A stretch of 64,000 nt of DNA, from NCBI GenBank assembly GCA_017935065.1, contig JAGBIF010000012.1, forward strand, positions 623-64,622. The letters are read 5' to 3'. This stretch comes from Clostridia bacterium. GTDB taxonomy: Bacteria; Bacillota; Clostridia; Oscillospirales; CAG-272. The position numbers were made by a program, and so were the translations under genes. The number at the start of each line of letters is the position of its first letter. Within the stretch, counting starts at the first letter, position 1. Shown in pieces: positions 1-8,785 of this stretch. A model generated the notes under the pieces. It was not told the DNA's origin. It was given only the letters and a program-made list of their open reading frames with translations, and did no database searches.

Positions 1-27
1 TAGCAAGGCTTTTTTTGTGAGGTATAT

Positions 28-921
28 ATGAAAAGAAGAATACTTCTTCGCGTGGCATTCGTCACGCTTATGATAACGCTTTTGTTATCGGTAAGTGCGC
101 TGCCCTGCTCGGCAATGCAGATCTTCGTAAAGGCGCTGACGGGCAAGACCATTACGCTTGAGGTGGAGCCGAATGATACCGTTTATGCGATAAAGGCGAA
201 GCTTCAGGAAAGGGAAGGCGTTCCGATTGCACATCAGCGGCTTATTTTCGCGGGCAAGACGCTCGAGGACGCAAAGACACTCTCGGATTACAACGTACAG
301 AAGGAATCAACTCTGCATCTTGTGCTTCGTATATGCGACAGCCATGTCTTTGACGGGTGCACAGATGCCGATTGCAACAATGAGGAATGTGCATTTACAC
401 GCGAGGCAAGTGACGTTCACGTCTATATTTATTGCACCGACACGGTGTGTGGGAATGAGGGCTGTGGCGTCACTCGCGAGGCACCGAGCAGTGCGCACGC
501 ATACAGCGACTGCACGGATACGACCTGCAACAACGCGGGCTGTGCAATGACACGCGAGCCACTCGCGCACGCATATAGCGACTGCACGGATGCAACCTGT
601 AATAACGACGGCTGTTCCTTTGCCCGTGAGGCGCAGACTGCGCACACCTATACCGACTGTAGCGACACCGCCTGTAACACCGAGGGTTGCGCCTTCACGC
701 GAGAGCCGCTTGCGCATAGCTTCGGTGAGTGGACGGTAACGAAGGAACCGACGCGCGAGGCGGAAGGCGAGCAGGTTCGCACCTGCCACTGCGGTGCAAG
801 CGAGAGCGAGGCGCTTCCCGCGCTAACGCCCGACGTCACCCCCTACGTTGTGCTTGGCGCGGTCTCGATTTCCCTCGTCGGCGTTATAGTGCTTGTTATC
901 GTTAAGATAAAGAAAGTTTAA
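28..921 (+). CDS. Secreted, C-terminally membrane-anchored protein with a eukaryotic-type ubiquitin domain and five Cys/His-rich repeats
   Basis: GAGGT RBS at 19-23. 29-aa Sec signal ending PCSA. Residues 30-101 (nt 115-330) read [18 protein letters not shown]...QRLIFAGK...[10 protein letters not shown], i.e. ubiquitin. Then five HxY/FxxC[TS]DxxCxxxxCxxxRE repeats, a C-terminal hydrophobic helix and KIKKV. Confidence 0.9.
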
Positions 922-941
922 ATGTGATACTCCTATCAAAT

Positions 942-981
942 AAAAACGGCAGAGCGCATATCTAGCGCTCTGCCGTTTTTT
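942..981. terminator. Bidirectional intrinsic terminator between convergent genes
   Basis: AAAAACGGCAGAGCGC-loop-GCGCTCTGCCGTTTTTT perfect stem with A/T tails on both sides. Confidence 0.85.
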
Positions 982-2495: not shown

Positions 2496-5126
2496 CTATT
2501 TCTTTGCCGTAATGAACTCGGCTATCTCAAGTGCTACGCTGTCAAGCTCTGCCATAAATTCGCGCGTTGTAACGCGAAGCCCGCCCGCACCTATCACGAT
2601 AAGCTGCTCGTCTCGGTCATCGGTTACGACCCTTACCGTGTCGGGCGCCTTAATTGAATACGCGGCACGCTCAATATAGGCGTCGGCGGTCTGCCTTTGC
2701 TTGGTATATACCACCGTCACTCCATCAAGGTCCTCGACAGTACCCTCGTTGCCCGCTCGCTTGTGCCCGTCAAAGACGATAATCACGCGGGCACGCCTTA
2801 CACCTCTGTAATTACAGAGCAGTCTTATAAGCGTGTCTCTCGCGTGCGACAGCTCGGAGCTTGCCAGCCGTGAGAGCTCTTCATTTGCGAAAATAAAATT
2901 GTATCCGTCAATAAGAAGATACTCGTCACCCTTTTGTATTTGTCTCGGCTTTACCGCCCTTTCCTTGCCCGAGTAGACGGTCTTTTCGCTAACCTTGCGG
3001 GGTGTTATCCTGCCGTAGGTAGCCTCAAATATTCGCATAAGCTCCTTGTCCTCAGCGACCGTGGCTCGGTAGTCCTTAGCACCCTTACTTCCTTGCGGCG
3101 GGGGAGCGGTGACGGTCATTTCGTCCTGTGCCTCATATGATGCGCGTATGCCCTCGGGCGGTGGGGTGTGCATTTTCCCGTCCGCTTCATACCACGGCAC
3201 AAGATAACCCGCGCCGCCCTTGCATAAAACCGAGTTCGGGTTTCTTCTTATATCAGCCTCGGGGTCGTATGCGCGCGCCGCGATAACCTCCTCGGCATTG
3301 TGGCAGGGAAGATACTCGCCCGCGGTAAGGTAAAGCCTGCCCTCACCTCTCGTGTAGGCGCGAAGCTCATTATGGTAGGAGCGCATACCGTATACGGGCG
3401 CGTAGCCTGTGAGCTTCACCTCGCCCTCGCCTGTAAACTCGGGTGCGTCACACCTGCCGTGGCGCATTTCGATATCGTTTAAAAATCTTCCGAGCGCCCC
3501 CTCGGGAAGCCTTGCCTCAAATCTGAAGGTCGGCTCAAGCAGCATAAGCGCACCTGCCTCGCGTGCCTTCATAAGCGCTTGGTTGAGTGCGCGAAAGGTC
3601 GCCTGTCTGAAGTCGCCGCCCTCGGTATGCTTCGGGTGCGCCCTGCCCGCGATAAGCGTAATCTTCATATCGGTTATAGGCGCACAGACGAGCTTTCCCA
3701 TATGCCGTCTTTCCTCAAGGTGCGACAGAATAAGCCTCTGCCAATTCAGCTTAAGCGTATCGGTCGGTACCTCGGTCGCGAATACAAGTCCCGCGCCTCG
3801 CTCCAGCGGCTCAAGCCTGAGCCTTACCTCGGCATAGTGCATAAGAGGCTCAAAGTGTCCCGCGCCAAAGACGGTGTCGCTTACCGTCTCGCGGTAAACT
3901 ATTCCCGCCTCCTCAAAGCCGACCTCAAGCGAGAGCCTGTCCTTGATAAGCCGCTTTAAGACCTCGGACTGTATCTCGCCCATAAGCCTTACCCTTACCT
4001 CTTTGGTTTCCTCGTCATAGCGAAGGGCGAGCGTCGGCTCCTCGTCACCAAGCGGAATAAGATCAAGATACGCGCGGTGTATGTCGCACCCCGCGGGGAA
4101 GGTAATTCTGTAATCAAGCACACTCTCGGCGCTCAGCTCGTCACAAGAGGCGGTGCCGAGCCCCATTCCAGCTCTGGTATGCTTAAGATTAGGTATCGCA
4201 ACGACCTCGCCTGCCGAGGCGGATCTTACCGTCTTGAATTTATCACCGCTGTAGAGGCGAAGCTGCTCGACGCGCTCGGTAACGCCGTTACCGTGCTCGG
4301 TAACGCTGTCGCCGTCGGTGCGTATCTCAAGGGTGTCCTTGACGGCAAGCTCACCGCCCGTTATCTTCATAAGCGTAAGCCTCATCCCGTCGGGCGCGGT
4401 CATTATCTTGTATATTTTCGCGCCGAAAAGAGTTTTACTGTACGCCTTCTCTCTGACAAAGCGCGATACGGTGCGCAAAAGCACATCCACACCCGTATTT
4501 TTGAGTGCCGAGCCGAATATCGCGGGGATAAGCGTGCAGCGCCTGATAGCCTCTGCAAGGCTCCCGTCCGAGAGTGTGCCACAGTCGAGATACTCGCCGA
4601 TAAGCTGCTCGTCAACTCCCGCGCATTCCTCGTAAAAGCGCGCCTTATCCTCACTCTCAAGGTTGAAGTCACAGATGCCCTTGTCGAGCGTGGCTCTGAG
4701 TGAATTCAGGATATCTATACGGCGCTCCTTTGCCATATCCATTTTGTTGACGAATATAAAGGTAGGTATCCTTCGGCTCTTAAGCTTTGACAGTAGCGTT
4801 TTCGTGTGAAATACGGCACCGTCATCGGCGCTGACGACAAGTATAGCGTAGTCCTGTATGGCAAGCGCGCGCTCTGCCTCGCTGAAAAAGTCAAGGTGCC
4901 CTGGGGTATCCACCACCGTATAGTCTATTCCCGAGTAAGTCAGGCGCGCAAGCTTTGAGAATACGGTAATGCCGCGCTCACGCTCAATGCCGTGAGAGTC
5001 GAGCAGGCAGTCACCGCTGTCAACTCTGCCCTGTGTCTTTATCGCGCCCGCATTGTAGAGCATAGCCTCGGTGAGAGTGGTTTTGCCCGCGTCAACGTGC
5101 GCCAGTATGCCAAGTGTGATTTTCAC
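2496..5126 (-). CDS. TetM/TetO/EF-G-like translational GTPase fused to a C-terminal NYN (YacP/Rae1-like) RNase domain
   Basis: AHVDAGKTT, ERGIT, DTPGH, NKMD; HPKHTEGGDFRQAT; C-terminal LIDGYN...VFDG...TADAYIE...VVTDD; GTG start. Confidence 0.88.
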   Translation of the reverse strand: MKITLGILAHVDAGKTTLTEAMLYNAGAIKTQGRVDSGDCLLDSHGIERERGITVFSKLARLTYSGIDYTVVDTPGHLDFFSEAERALAIQDYAILVVSADDGAVFHTKTLLSKLKSRRIPTFIFVNKMDMAKERRIDILNSLRATLDKGICDFNLESEDKARFYEECAGVDEQLIGEYLDCGTLSDGSLAEAIRRCTLIPAIFGSALKNTGVDVLLRTVSRFVREKAYSKTLFGAKIYKIMTAPDGMRLTLMKITGGELAVKDTLEIRTDGDSVTEHGNGVTERVEQLRLYSGDKFKTVRSASAGEVVAIPNLKHTRAGMGLGTASCDELSAESVLDYRITFPAGCDIHRAYLDLIPLGDEEPTLALRYDEETKEVRVRLMGEIQSEVLKRLIKDRLSLEVGFEEAGIVYRETVSDTVFGAGHFEPLMHYAEVRLRLEPLERGAGLVFATEVPTDTLKLNWQRLILSHLEERRHMGKLVCAPITDMKITLIAGRAHPKHTEGGDFRQATFRALNQALMKAREAGALMLLEPTFRFEARLPEGALGRFLNDIEMRHGRCDAPEFTGEGEVKLTGYAPVYGMRSYHNELRAYTRGEGRLYLTAGEYLPCHNAEEVIAARAYDPEADIRRNPNSVLCKGGAGYLVPWYEADGKMHTPPPEGIRASYEAQDEMTVTAPPPQGSKGAKDYRATVAEDKELMRIFEATYGRITPRKVSEKTVYSGKERAVKPRQIQKGDEYLLIDGYNFIFANEELSRLASSELSHARDTLIRLLCNYRGVRRARVIIVFDGHKRAGNEGTVEDLDGVTVVYTKQRQTADAYIERAAYSIKAPDTVRVVTDDRDEQLIVIGAGGLRVTTREFMAELDSVALEIAEFITAKK

Positions 5127-8083: not shown

Positions 8084-8785
8084 ATGAAAATCGGTGACAT
8101 AATAGCTCTCGGCACTTATTTTAAAACGCGCGTGGCATACGGTGAGTATACGGTAGAGCCTATCGAGTGGCAGGTGCTGGATATTAAGGACGGGAAGGCT
8201 CTGCTTTTGTCAAGATATGTGCTTGACGGCGGGATACCGTATGAGAAGGTGAGGCGCGACACCTCGTGGGGCGAGTGCAATATCAGAGCCTGGCTCAACG
8301 AGGCGTTCTACAAGGTCGCATTTGACGAGGCGGACAGGAAGAAAATAGCCTGTGTCACTATACCTGCCGATGCTGGGAATTCCTTAAGCTTTGCCTCTCG
8401 GGACAGGATATTTCTCCTTAGCATAGGTGAGGTGGGAAGCTATCTTTCCGTTGAAGATAGCGCCTGCTATCCTACCGACTACGCTAATGACAGAACGGCA
8501 CTTCTTACCTCAACCGACGGGCGGTGCGCCTGGTGGCTTCGCTCGGCTGGTGTCGACGCAAGCTGGGCGGCACTCGTTGACGAGGACGGGGTTATCAACG
8601 ACGAGGGCTTTATGGCAAACCGTAGCTTCTTCGGAATTCGCCCCGCTATGTGGATATACGAGGATGAAAAAGAGCTTACCGACGAGGACTACACCAAGCG
8701 AAGCTTTGCCGAGCTTAACGCGGGGCTTGATGAGGCAAGGGCGATGCTTGACGAGCTTAAGCGCAAGCGCTCTGAAAATAAATAG
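8084..8785 (+). CDS. DUF6273-like domain protein with C-terminal coiled coil
   Basis: EPIEWQVL, KALLLS, IRAWLN, IFLLS, WWLRS, GIRPAMW motifs. Confidence 0.7.
   Translation: MKIGDIIALGTYFKTRVAYGEYTVEPIEWQVLDIKDGKALLLSRYVLDGGIPYEKVRRDTSWGECNIRAWLNEAFYKVAFDEADRKKIACVTIPADAGNSLSFASRDRIFLLSIGEVGSYLSVEDSACYPTDYANDRTALLTSTDGRCAWWLRSAGVDASWAALVDEDGVINDEGFMANRSFFGIRPAMWIYEDEKELTDEDYTKRSFAELNAGLDEARAMLDELKRKRSENK

Follow-up and report, generated by a model that had tools for sequence, protein, structure and literature searches.

The stretch analysed here, referred to as the window, comprises 64,000 nucleotides of one contig (C30) of a metagenome-assembled genome (MAG; G000) of a Clostridia bacterium, an assembly of 1.74 Mb in 47 contigs that is 74.9% complete. 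A gene at the start of the window encodes a protein in which a near-eukaryotic ubiquitin (Ub) directly follows a predicted Sec signal peptide and runs on into a Cys/His-rich stalk, a small module named GEW and a membrane anchor. It proved to be one variant of a class of prokaryotic signal-peptide-Ub genes, and we discuss below what a Ub that is predicted to be displayed outside the cell, and that cannot be conjugated, may be doing. The features of the locus are as follows.

19..22, forward strand: Shine-Dalgarno-like GAGG, 5 nt upstream of ATG28 (read from the sequence)
28..921, forward strand: whole open reading frame (ORF), 297 amino acids (aa) plus stop (translation)
28..114, forward strand: predicted Sec signal peptide, residues 1-29, ending C-S-A (read from the sequence)
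115..330, forward strand: ubiquitin domain, residues 30-101, Ub 1-72 (PF00240, PDB match, AlphaFold)
331..714, forward strand: stalk, residues 102-229, five ~25-aa repeats H-x4-C-x4-C-x4-C...TRE (sequence, alignment)
715..819, forward strand: GEW module 'HxFGEW..TKE...G...R.C.CG...P', residues 230-264 (exhaustive search, AlphaFold)
838..918, forward strand: C-terminal transmembrane (TM) helix, ~residues 271-292, and basic tail KIKKV (hydrophobic run, model)
942..980, no strand assigned: intrinsic terminator hairpin between two convergent genes (folding)

Residues 1-29 consist of a KRR n-region, a hydrophobic core and C-S-A at positions -3 to -1, directly followed by MQIFVK; here and at all other loci, signal peptides were called with a simple rule of our own applied to the sequence, not with a dedicated predictor. 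Inspection of the sequence ahead of the internal ATG115 reveals no GAGG-like motif. The hairpin at the end of the gene has 16 bp and a folding energy of -30.1 kcal/mol (z = -8.28), precedes a U-run, and found its equal in stability in 0 of 200 shuffles; a consensus terminator scanner gave no terminator, and the hairpin was shown by folding instead. The AlphaFold model of the protein, built on a 13-sequence alignment, displays the beta-beta-alpha-beta-beta order of the beta-grasp fold in the Ub head (strands 30-36, 41-46, 70-74 and 95-100, helix 52-63), with block means of the predicted local distance difference test (pLDDT) of 76-90 over residues 31-100. The GEW module, which reads HSFGEW..TKE...G...R.C.CG in this protein, is modelled as three short strands with block-mean pLDDT of 67-79, and the C-terminal TM region as a helix spanning 271-296.

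Pfam places residues 32-101 in PF00240 (E 2.3e-27, 95 bits, cut-off 25.4), and a phmmer search of PDB sequences with residues 30-101 aligns them without gaps, 1-72 on 1-72, to a 76-aa ubiquitin with E 2.5e-32. NCBIfam gave only partial rad23 ubiquitin-like matches for the protein and none for the stalk. Identity to human-type Ub (the reference being the human-type Ub from locus L028) is 55/72, or 76%. The 17 differences are T7A, S20N, I23V, E24Y, N25A, V26I, I30L, D32E, K33R, I36V, P38I, D39A, Q40H, Q49T, G53A, R54K and I61V, 11 of them within Ub positions 23-40. L8, I44, H68 and V70 are retained together with K6, K11, K27, K29, K48 and K63, and K33 is R. At Ub positions 73-76 LRGG has given way to ICDS, and the stalk follows without a break. 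The protein thus lacks the di-glycine of a conjugatable ubiquitin-like protein (Ubl), and since it has no free C-terminus either, its Ub head cannot be conjugated.

Ub 1-72 contains no Cys; the first one lies at position 74, in the opening of the stalk. It recalls the functional C-terminal Cys of the Bacteroides fragilis ubiquitin BfUbb and may just start the first stalk unit. A Cys two or three residues past Ub 72, and then a His, are common to the window protein and the subfamily members closest to it, P0111 and P0037 (R-I-C-D-S-H, K-I-C-S-N-H and L-P-C-T-V-H, respectively), and in the paralogue described below the Cys is located further on.

These results bear out much of an earlier note on this DNA, which had been written from the letters alone. 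The order that it gave, signal peptide, Ub, Cys/His stalk and membrane anchor, is present with all its elements in the 297-aa ORF; the 55/72 identity, the kept patch and lysines and K33R were reproduced by the ungapped PDB alignment and a script; its remarks on the changes in 23-40 and on the replacement of LRGG by ICDS proved correct; and the bacterial ribosome-binding site and terminator correspond to the GAGG before ATG28 and the hairpin.

The stalk and anchor were compared with 1.84 billion representatives in an exhaustive phmmer search with residues 102-297. The search returned 3449 representatives at E<=1e-3, 751 of them at E<=1e-10, and two modules explain the matches, the Cys/His repeats and GEW, the latter being the commonest matched stretch. 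Matching proteins reach up to 26 matched stretches and a length of ~5500 aa. A word-index search with the stalk gave merely 2 proteins among 568 candidates. The same stalk, GEW module, TM helix and basic tail follow other N-terminal heads in P0116 and P0120, and P0032 combines a cohesin head with GEW modules and a TM anchor; the ending of TM helix and basic tail is common to P0037, P0116, P0120 and P0032. With so many matches and with other heads, including cohesin, stalk and anchor are a generic display cassette. Among the 152 proteins tested, just 7 contain a Ub domain (P0001, P0002, P0111, P0037, P0012, P0004 and P0003), and these make up the 5 clusters in which the complete Ub-stalk-anchor architecture of the window protein was observed. 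Judged from these comparisons, the stalk is a common one whose heads are exchangeable, Ub being one of them, and the precise combination seen here is rare.

Each stalk repeat contributes one His and three Cys, and the H and C columns are invariant in the 13-sequence family alignment. With the Pfam family zf-TAZ (PF02135) the window protein attains 13 bits (E 0.14), below the cut-off of 25, and the repeats of the relative P0120 pass it with 28.9 bits. TAZ fingers are of HCCC type. For the stalk, ESM Atlas scores of 0.75-0.76 fall short of the reliable range; in one row, 15-17% of the members belong to zinc-finger families. The stalk may bind zinc, which counts as a lead and not as a result.

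Strain proteins of 297 aa in other assemblies are identical to the window protein or 96-99% identical. Among 8 full-length strain variants, variable columns number 8/72 in Ub vs 8/163 in stalk plus GEW (Fisher p = 0.095), so strain variation has no significant bias toward the head. Stalk length differs between strains, because an in-frame skip of 147 nt (window 541-687) in the strain of sequencing run X6 removes 49 aa, read as two stalk repeats; the deletion is shown by the X6 contig only. Cluster members of 251 and 268 aa were considered as repeat-number variants and ruled out, since they represent a fragment and start-codon differences.

That the gene is bacterial was established by aligning contigs from public runs to window nt 1-2500. 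An 8521-nt contig of run X3, from the same study as the possible source and another sample, spans the whole of it with 4 differences. Run X6, which belongs to a different study, has a 3484-nt contig over 1-540 and 688-2420 that connects the upstream region with signal peptide, Ub, stalk and anchor and with the neighbouring gene, and contigs from two further studies cover parts of nt 1-2500. Among the sequencing runs no RNA holder is listed, which carries no information on expression. The Ub-coding part has a GC content of 0.51, next to 0.52 for the window, and a GC content at third codon positions (GC3) of 0.61. The gene stands alone between a transfer RNA (tRNA) gene and a convergent MatE gene, and its neighbours are core genes, namely those for MatE, an EF-G-like GTPase, a methylase, PheS/PheT and UvrC. 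The same MAG holds a paralogue (P0004, 373 aa) on a second contig, C2, amid ordinary bacterial genes (L002:721-1839, reverse strand), in which the order is signal peptide, Ub, Cys/His repeats, an extra Cys-rich insert, GEW module and TM helix. Because of the bridging contigs, the paralogue, the matching GC3 and the ordinary bacterial neighbours, a chimera or contamination is excluded for practical purposes, and the mis-assembly of nt 115-330 that the earlier note had named as a risk is countered by contigs from other studies.

No E1, E2 or JAB gene is situated within the next 15 kb, in agreement with that note, which had seen none downstream. A search of the 74.9%-complete MAG for UQ_con, UCH and OTU, run without a positive control and not extended to ThiF and JAB, gave no match. 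Omp85 likewise gave no match in this incomplete MAG, and the same search was positive in 7 diderm genomes. This result and the named relatives, which are Clostridia, suggest a producer lineage that looks monoderm, in agreement with the Gram-positive lineage proposed before.

The wider occurrence of such genes was assessed by scanning one genome per species, 185,579 prokaryotic species in all, with a pattern derived from an alignment of 5 Ub sequences. At least 600 stretches matched, at least 535 were confirmed as Ub-encoding loci, and the best 80 of these at least 535 were analysed. In 51 of the best 80, across phyla, a signal-peptide-like extension ends right before Ub Met1. A further 11 have no signal peptide by our rule, and 18 lie on contigs of <1.3 kb or encode polyubiquitin (LRGGMQIF); these 18 are probably eukaryotic contamination of isolate assemblies. 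The contaminant-like loci include L028, L059, L067, L068, L073, L077, L082, L083, L088, L091, L093, L095, L097, L100, L101 and L103, several with very low coverage in their contig names. The chain continues past Ub 72 by >60 aa in 40 of the 51 signal-peptide-Ub genes, by 5-60 aa in 6 and by <=4 aa in 5, and LRGG is retained in merely 4/51. Pfam, run on ten of the proteins, identified the following scaffolds.

L036 (Pseudomonadota MAG): Ub and autotransporter beta-domain (Pfam)
L084 (Saccharibacillus sacchari DSM 19268): Ub, fn3 and three SLH domains (Pfam)
L043 (Ruminococcus MAG): Ub and dockerin (Pfam)
L049: Ub and CBM_X2 (Pfam)
L066 (Methanothrix MAG): Ub, five SdrD-B domains and DUF11 (Pfam)
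L025, L029: Ub and Listeria-Bacteroides repeats (Flg_new), with hydrophobic C-terminal tails (Pfam, sequence)
L035: Ub and GLUG repeats (Pfam)
L044: Ub and DUF6345 (Pfam)

As far as the domain order tells, Ub sits in each scaffold type where the displayed or functional cargo normally sits. The mature protein of L036 (3771-4946) consists of Ub 1-72, a linker of ~50 aa and the beta-barrel (E 1e-31), the passenger being essentially Ub alone. Four mini forms from Acutalibacteraceae and Oscillospiraceae MAGs (L034, L055, L062, L086) have Ub followed by 44-46 aa with several Cys, one His and a hydrophobic segment, and L034, L055 and L062 share a C.DC..P.HG motif. The carriers on long contigs include the isolates Dyella sp. 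OK004, Dyella humi, Loktanella sp., a Halieaceae strain and S. sacchari. Ruminococcus albus 7 carries a signal-peptide-Ub gene on its 420-kb plasmid pRUMAL01 (WP_013483628.1, 'ubiquitin family protein'), whose product has automatic Gene Ontology (GO) terms for protein ubiquitination. At this locus (L107, 4450-7351) the gene stands in a row of small secreted proteins, two of which share, by eye, the ~150-aa C-terminal domain of the Ub protein; a TM-tailed protein and a dockerin protein come next, and the row may be a surface-structure gene cluster.

Within the family of the window organism, Pfam ubiquitin scores above cut-off in 8/151 genomes, each of a different genus, and was not found in the other two genomes of its genus (98% and 99% complete), so the gene is patchy and accessory. 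A tblastn search of phage records gave no match. The corresponding counts are 3/400 for genomes of the taxonomic class, with G000 included and one genome unscored, and 0/14 for control genomes. In the full-text literature, subscription journals and supplements being outside its scope, no description of a tethered or widespread bacterial signal-peptide ubiquitin was found, and the class is apparently undescribed, BfUbb and BoUbb being the sole described forms in the literature searched. The supposition of the earlier note that this protein had not been characterised holds within that scope (no paper on tethered forms was found, subscription literature lying outside it), and bacterial homologues with a signal peptide-Ub-anchor architecture do exist; its picture of a near-unique oddity has to give way to that of a fast-evolving member of a multi-phylum signal-peptide-ubiquitin class.

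Across 52 loci the GC3 of the Ub genes ranges from 0.12 to 0.94 and tracks the GC of the host locus with r = 0.92, which implies that amelioration has had time to act on them. For loci outside the clostridial clade, the median nonsynonymous divergence (dN) is 0.08 and the median synonymous divergence (dS) 1.83, with dS >1 or undefined in 517/528 pairs. As read from these alignments, genes that took on the base composition of their hosts and still kept their protein sequence point to purifying selection within prokaryotes. Across the 51 signal-peptide-Ub genes 20/72 Ub positions are invariant, the variation is concentrated at positions 16-32 and 52-57, and the residues of the hydrophobic patch are kept almost throughout (L8 in 49/51, I44 in 48/51, H68 in 51/51, V70 in 50/51). 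In a maximum-likelihood (ML) tree of 72 columns, in which many forks are unresolved, the bootstrap is not fully settled and BfUbb is not included, the window Ub belongs to a 21-row clade (support 98/95) that holds 16 rows from gut Clostridia, 3 of the window family and 2 from ruminant Bacteroidales MAGs. Of the substitutions in the window Ub, S20N, N25A, V26I, D32E and R54K recur in 16-19 of the 25 Clostridia rows and in 0/12 tiny contigs. These shared clostridial substitutions indicate that the window Ub descends from a bacterial Ub lineage and is not a fresh capture.

The immediate relatives are considerably more variable. In the subfamily and family, Ub diverges to 28-53% identity over signal peptide plus Ub, and the Ub of the paralogue is identical to that of the window protein in 35/72 positions, with the changes L8A, H68T and V70D. 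Terminal branches in the ML tree measure 0.26 for the window Ub vs a median of 0.025, 0.26 for P0111, 0.5 for P0037 and 0.8 for the paralogue.

Two other proteins of the window are mentioned here as side observations. A 233-aa protein at 8084-8782 belongs to DUF6273 (E 4e-23), a domain that is also found C-terminal to the Ub head in two same-family relatives, L009 and L011. The 876-aa protein encoded at 2496-5126 (reverse strand) joins an EF-G/Tet(M)-like GTPase part (GTP_EFTU, EFG_III, EFG_IV, EFG_C) to a C-terminal YacP-like NYN nuclease domain, a fusion that looks unusual.

Taken jointly, these observations are best accommodated, with a probability of roughly 60%, by an exported, membrane-tethered, non-conjugatable Ub that is displayed on a stalk as a non-covalent ligand. 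The protein would be exported through Sec as a type I membrane protein of monoderm gut Clostridia, and cleavage of the signal peptide would leave Met1 of a eukaryote-derived Ub as the mature N-terminus. A topology of N-out/C-in with a short basic cytoplasmic tail would follow, outward display being the best topological reading of the sequence. Placed at the tip of a ~130-aa stalk of five His+3Cys repeats, which is succeeded by the beta module and the TM helix, Ub would be held away from the membrane, outside the cell. The displayed Ub would act non-covalently, most likely via the retained L8/I44/H68/V70 face. As the purported partner, a eukaryotic Ub-recognising protein of a host, protist or fungus is somewhat more likely than a bacterial one, and it would explain the preserved eukaryotic Ub surface across the class. 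The roles that the earlier note had proposed, an adhesin or decoy toward Ub-binding proteins of a host or of protozoa, or a shed effector, are candidates only.

A more sweeping form of this proposal, which we put forward tentatively and regard as doubtful, is that surface display of near-native Ub constitutes a widespread unrecognised prokaryotic strategy, in which the I44 face engages eukaryotic Ub machinery or an extracellular receptor. Display would then have been reached independently via autotransporters, S-layer anchors, dockerins, adhesin stalks and membrane tethers, directed at hosts, grazers and fungi and kept by purifying selection, and the window protein would be a fast-evolving, stalk-mounted cross-kingdom mimic in gut Clostridia.

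Several points weigh against display as a ligand. Known ubiquitin-binding domains and deubiquitinases are cytosolic and would not ordinarily be encountered by a Ub facing outward. CXCR4, the single receptor put forward for extracellular Ub, is contested (PMC4522466). The L8A, H68T and V70D changes of the paralogue mean that a ligand role of the I44 face cannot hold subfamily-wide, and the window Ub itself, by its branch length, is evolving ~10x faster than the class median, which does not speak of extreme constraint. Saturated dS could partly predate transfer if the acquisitions were independent. The class takes in free-living soil, freshwater and marine bacteria, so that a host-specific role cannot be general. 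Among 57 loci of >=4 kb and the two of the MAG itself, no family of neighbouring genes is shared between taxa; clusters other than Ub reach 4-6 loci at most, and those confined to one lineage (Acutalibacteraceae/Oscillospiraceae, Dyella/Collimonas) resemble local synteny. On the structural side, AlphaFold does not fold the stalk repeats (pLDDT <50), zinc binding by the stalk rests on spacing and on the zf-TAZ match of a relative rather than of the window protein, and our home-made signal-peptide rule is a weakness. The start of two NCBI records at MQIFVK, which also belongs here, is considered with the internal start below.

An alternative in which no ligand is required is that Ub serves as a passive cap, an unusually stable, fast-folding N-terminal unit that assists folding once the protein has passed through Sec, or that shields or spaces the N-terminus. 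The fusion of Ub to very different scaffolds and C-terminal domains fits this view, as do the failure to find a conserved partner gene among the neighbours and the free divergence of Ub in the subfamily and family, down to a paralogue with a single I44-patch residue left out of four, as expected if the fold alone is constrained. However, across the 51 genes the surface is conserved far beyond the needs of the fold, given the invariant positions, the nearly invariant I44 patch and a dN of 0.08 at saturated dS, and in L036 and the ~45-aa mini-anchors of L034, L055, L062 and L086 essentially only Ub is present as cargo, which leaves nothing to cap. We consider a passive cap unlikely.

Next to it stands the possibility, also an unlikely one, that the protein is a BfUbb-like interbacterial weapon whose Ub head poisons competitors on contact or after proteolytic shedding. 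BfUbb and BoUbb, the only characterised bacterial eukaryote-type ubiquitins, are both antibacterial (PMC5705921, PMC11467351, PMC11901371). The signal peptide ends exactly before Ub Met1, as in BfUbb (PMC5705921), the Cys at Ub position 74 has a parallel in the C-terminal Cys that BfUbb requires for activity (PMC11901371), and the occurrence in 8/151 family genomes, each of a different genus, is of a patchy, accessory-like kind. Nevertheless, a BfUbb-type disulfide cannot form in a Ub 1-72 without Cys, and the window protein is anchored whereas BfUbb is free. BfUbb enters Bacteroides via the outer-membrane transporter ButCD and hits a periplasmic peptidyl-prolyl isomerase (PPIase) (PMC11901371), and the MAG of the producer, as stated above, gave no Omp85 match. 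No immunity-like gene recurs beside the Ub genes, the window gene standing alone between the tRNA and the convergent MatE gene, and the window Ub groups with fusions of Clostridia in the tree, which does not contain BfUbb.

Translation from an internal start at residue 30 would yield a tail-anchored cytoplasmic Ub with zinc-finger-like repeats. The near-identical NCBI nr proteins P0154 and P0155 (268 aa) do begin at MQIFVK, without a signal peptide, and His/Cys zinc motifs are, as a matter of general knowledge, more typical of intracellular proteins. This start is nevertheless very improbable: GAGG precedes ATG28 by 5 nt and ATG115 has none before it, the 29 codons from ATG28 up to that point encode a canonical signal peptide with like extensions in 51 of the best 80 loci, the basic tail after the TM helix suits N-out, C-in, and the same stalk cassette carries cohesin, an extracellular module. 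An assembly or binning artefact that joined eukaryotic Ub to bacterial DNA is hardly conceivable, for although the 18 contaminant-like loci among the best 80 demonstrate that such artefacts exist, bridging contigs from other runs and studies join the upstream region, signal peptide, Ub, stalk and MatE gene, a paralogue lies on a second contig, GC3 is ameliorated, and the clostridial substitutions are absent from contaminant-like contigs.

Secreted bacterial ubiquitin is treated in the literature as a small diffusible toxin, to which later work added that of B. ovatus. The occurrence of signal-peptide Ub, mostly without di-glycine, on surface scaffolds in hundreds of prokaryotic genomes of many phyla, where purifying selection holds its sequence near that of eukaryotes, is a broader pattern, which gene calls starting at MQIFVK and GO terms for 'protein ubiquitination' may have masked. 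It poses the question of what an extracellular, non-conjugatable ubiquitin binds, and cultured carriers such as Ruminococcus albus 7, Dyella spp. and Saccharibacillus sacchari DSM 19268 open the class to experiment.

Comparison with known systems begins with BfUbb, which the earlier note had introduced as a soluble secreted interbacterial toxin, in agreement with PMC5705921 and PMC11901371. The likeness to BfUbb and BoUbb lies in a eukaryote-type Ub of a gut bacterium whose mature form starts at Ub Met1 (PMC5705921), and in the lost di-glycine and a Cys close to where the Ub part ends (PMC11901371). In contrast, BfUbb is a free diffusible toxin of 76 aa with an essential intramolecular disulfide (PMC11901371, PMC11467351), and the mature window protein would have 268 aa with stalk and TM helix. 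ButCD imports BfUbb, which targets the periplasmic PPIase of Bacteroides (PMC11901371, PMC11467351). Identity to human-type Ub is 76% for the window Ub vs a reported 63% for BfUbb (PMC3352274). Of the BfUbb features compared, the window protein has the predicted mature start at Met1 and has neither the free 76-aa form nor the C-terminal Cys disulfide, and on these features of its sequence it is not classed as a BfUbb-type toxin.

Bacterial operons with E1, E2, JAB and Ubl genes are likewise prokaryotic sources of ubiquitin-fold proteins (PMC10557695). Their Ubls are cytoplasmic, divergent and encoded beside E1, E2 and peptidase genes, in contrast to the near-eukaryotic Ub of the window protein with its signal peptide, without di-glycine and without genes of this kind as neighbours. 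The ubiquitin-extension proteins of nematodes are products of eukaryotic genes. There too, Ub follows a secretion signal (PMC5705921). Eukaryotic ubiquitin itself (PF00240) agrees with the window Ub in 55/72 positions, the fold, the I44 patch and six of seven lysines, and differs in that the window Ub is predicted to be exported, lacks LRGG and a free C-terminus, and forms a single domain of a surface protein. The other prokaryotic signal-peptide-Ub fusions have in common with the window protein the junction at Met1, the loss of LRGG and the position of Ub as N-terminal head of a scaffold, and it is the scaffold of Cys/His repeats, GEW module and TM helix that sets the window protein apart from them.

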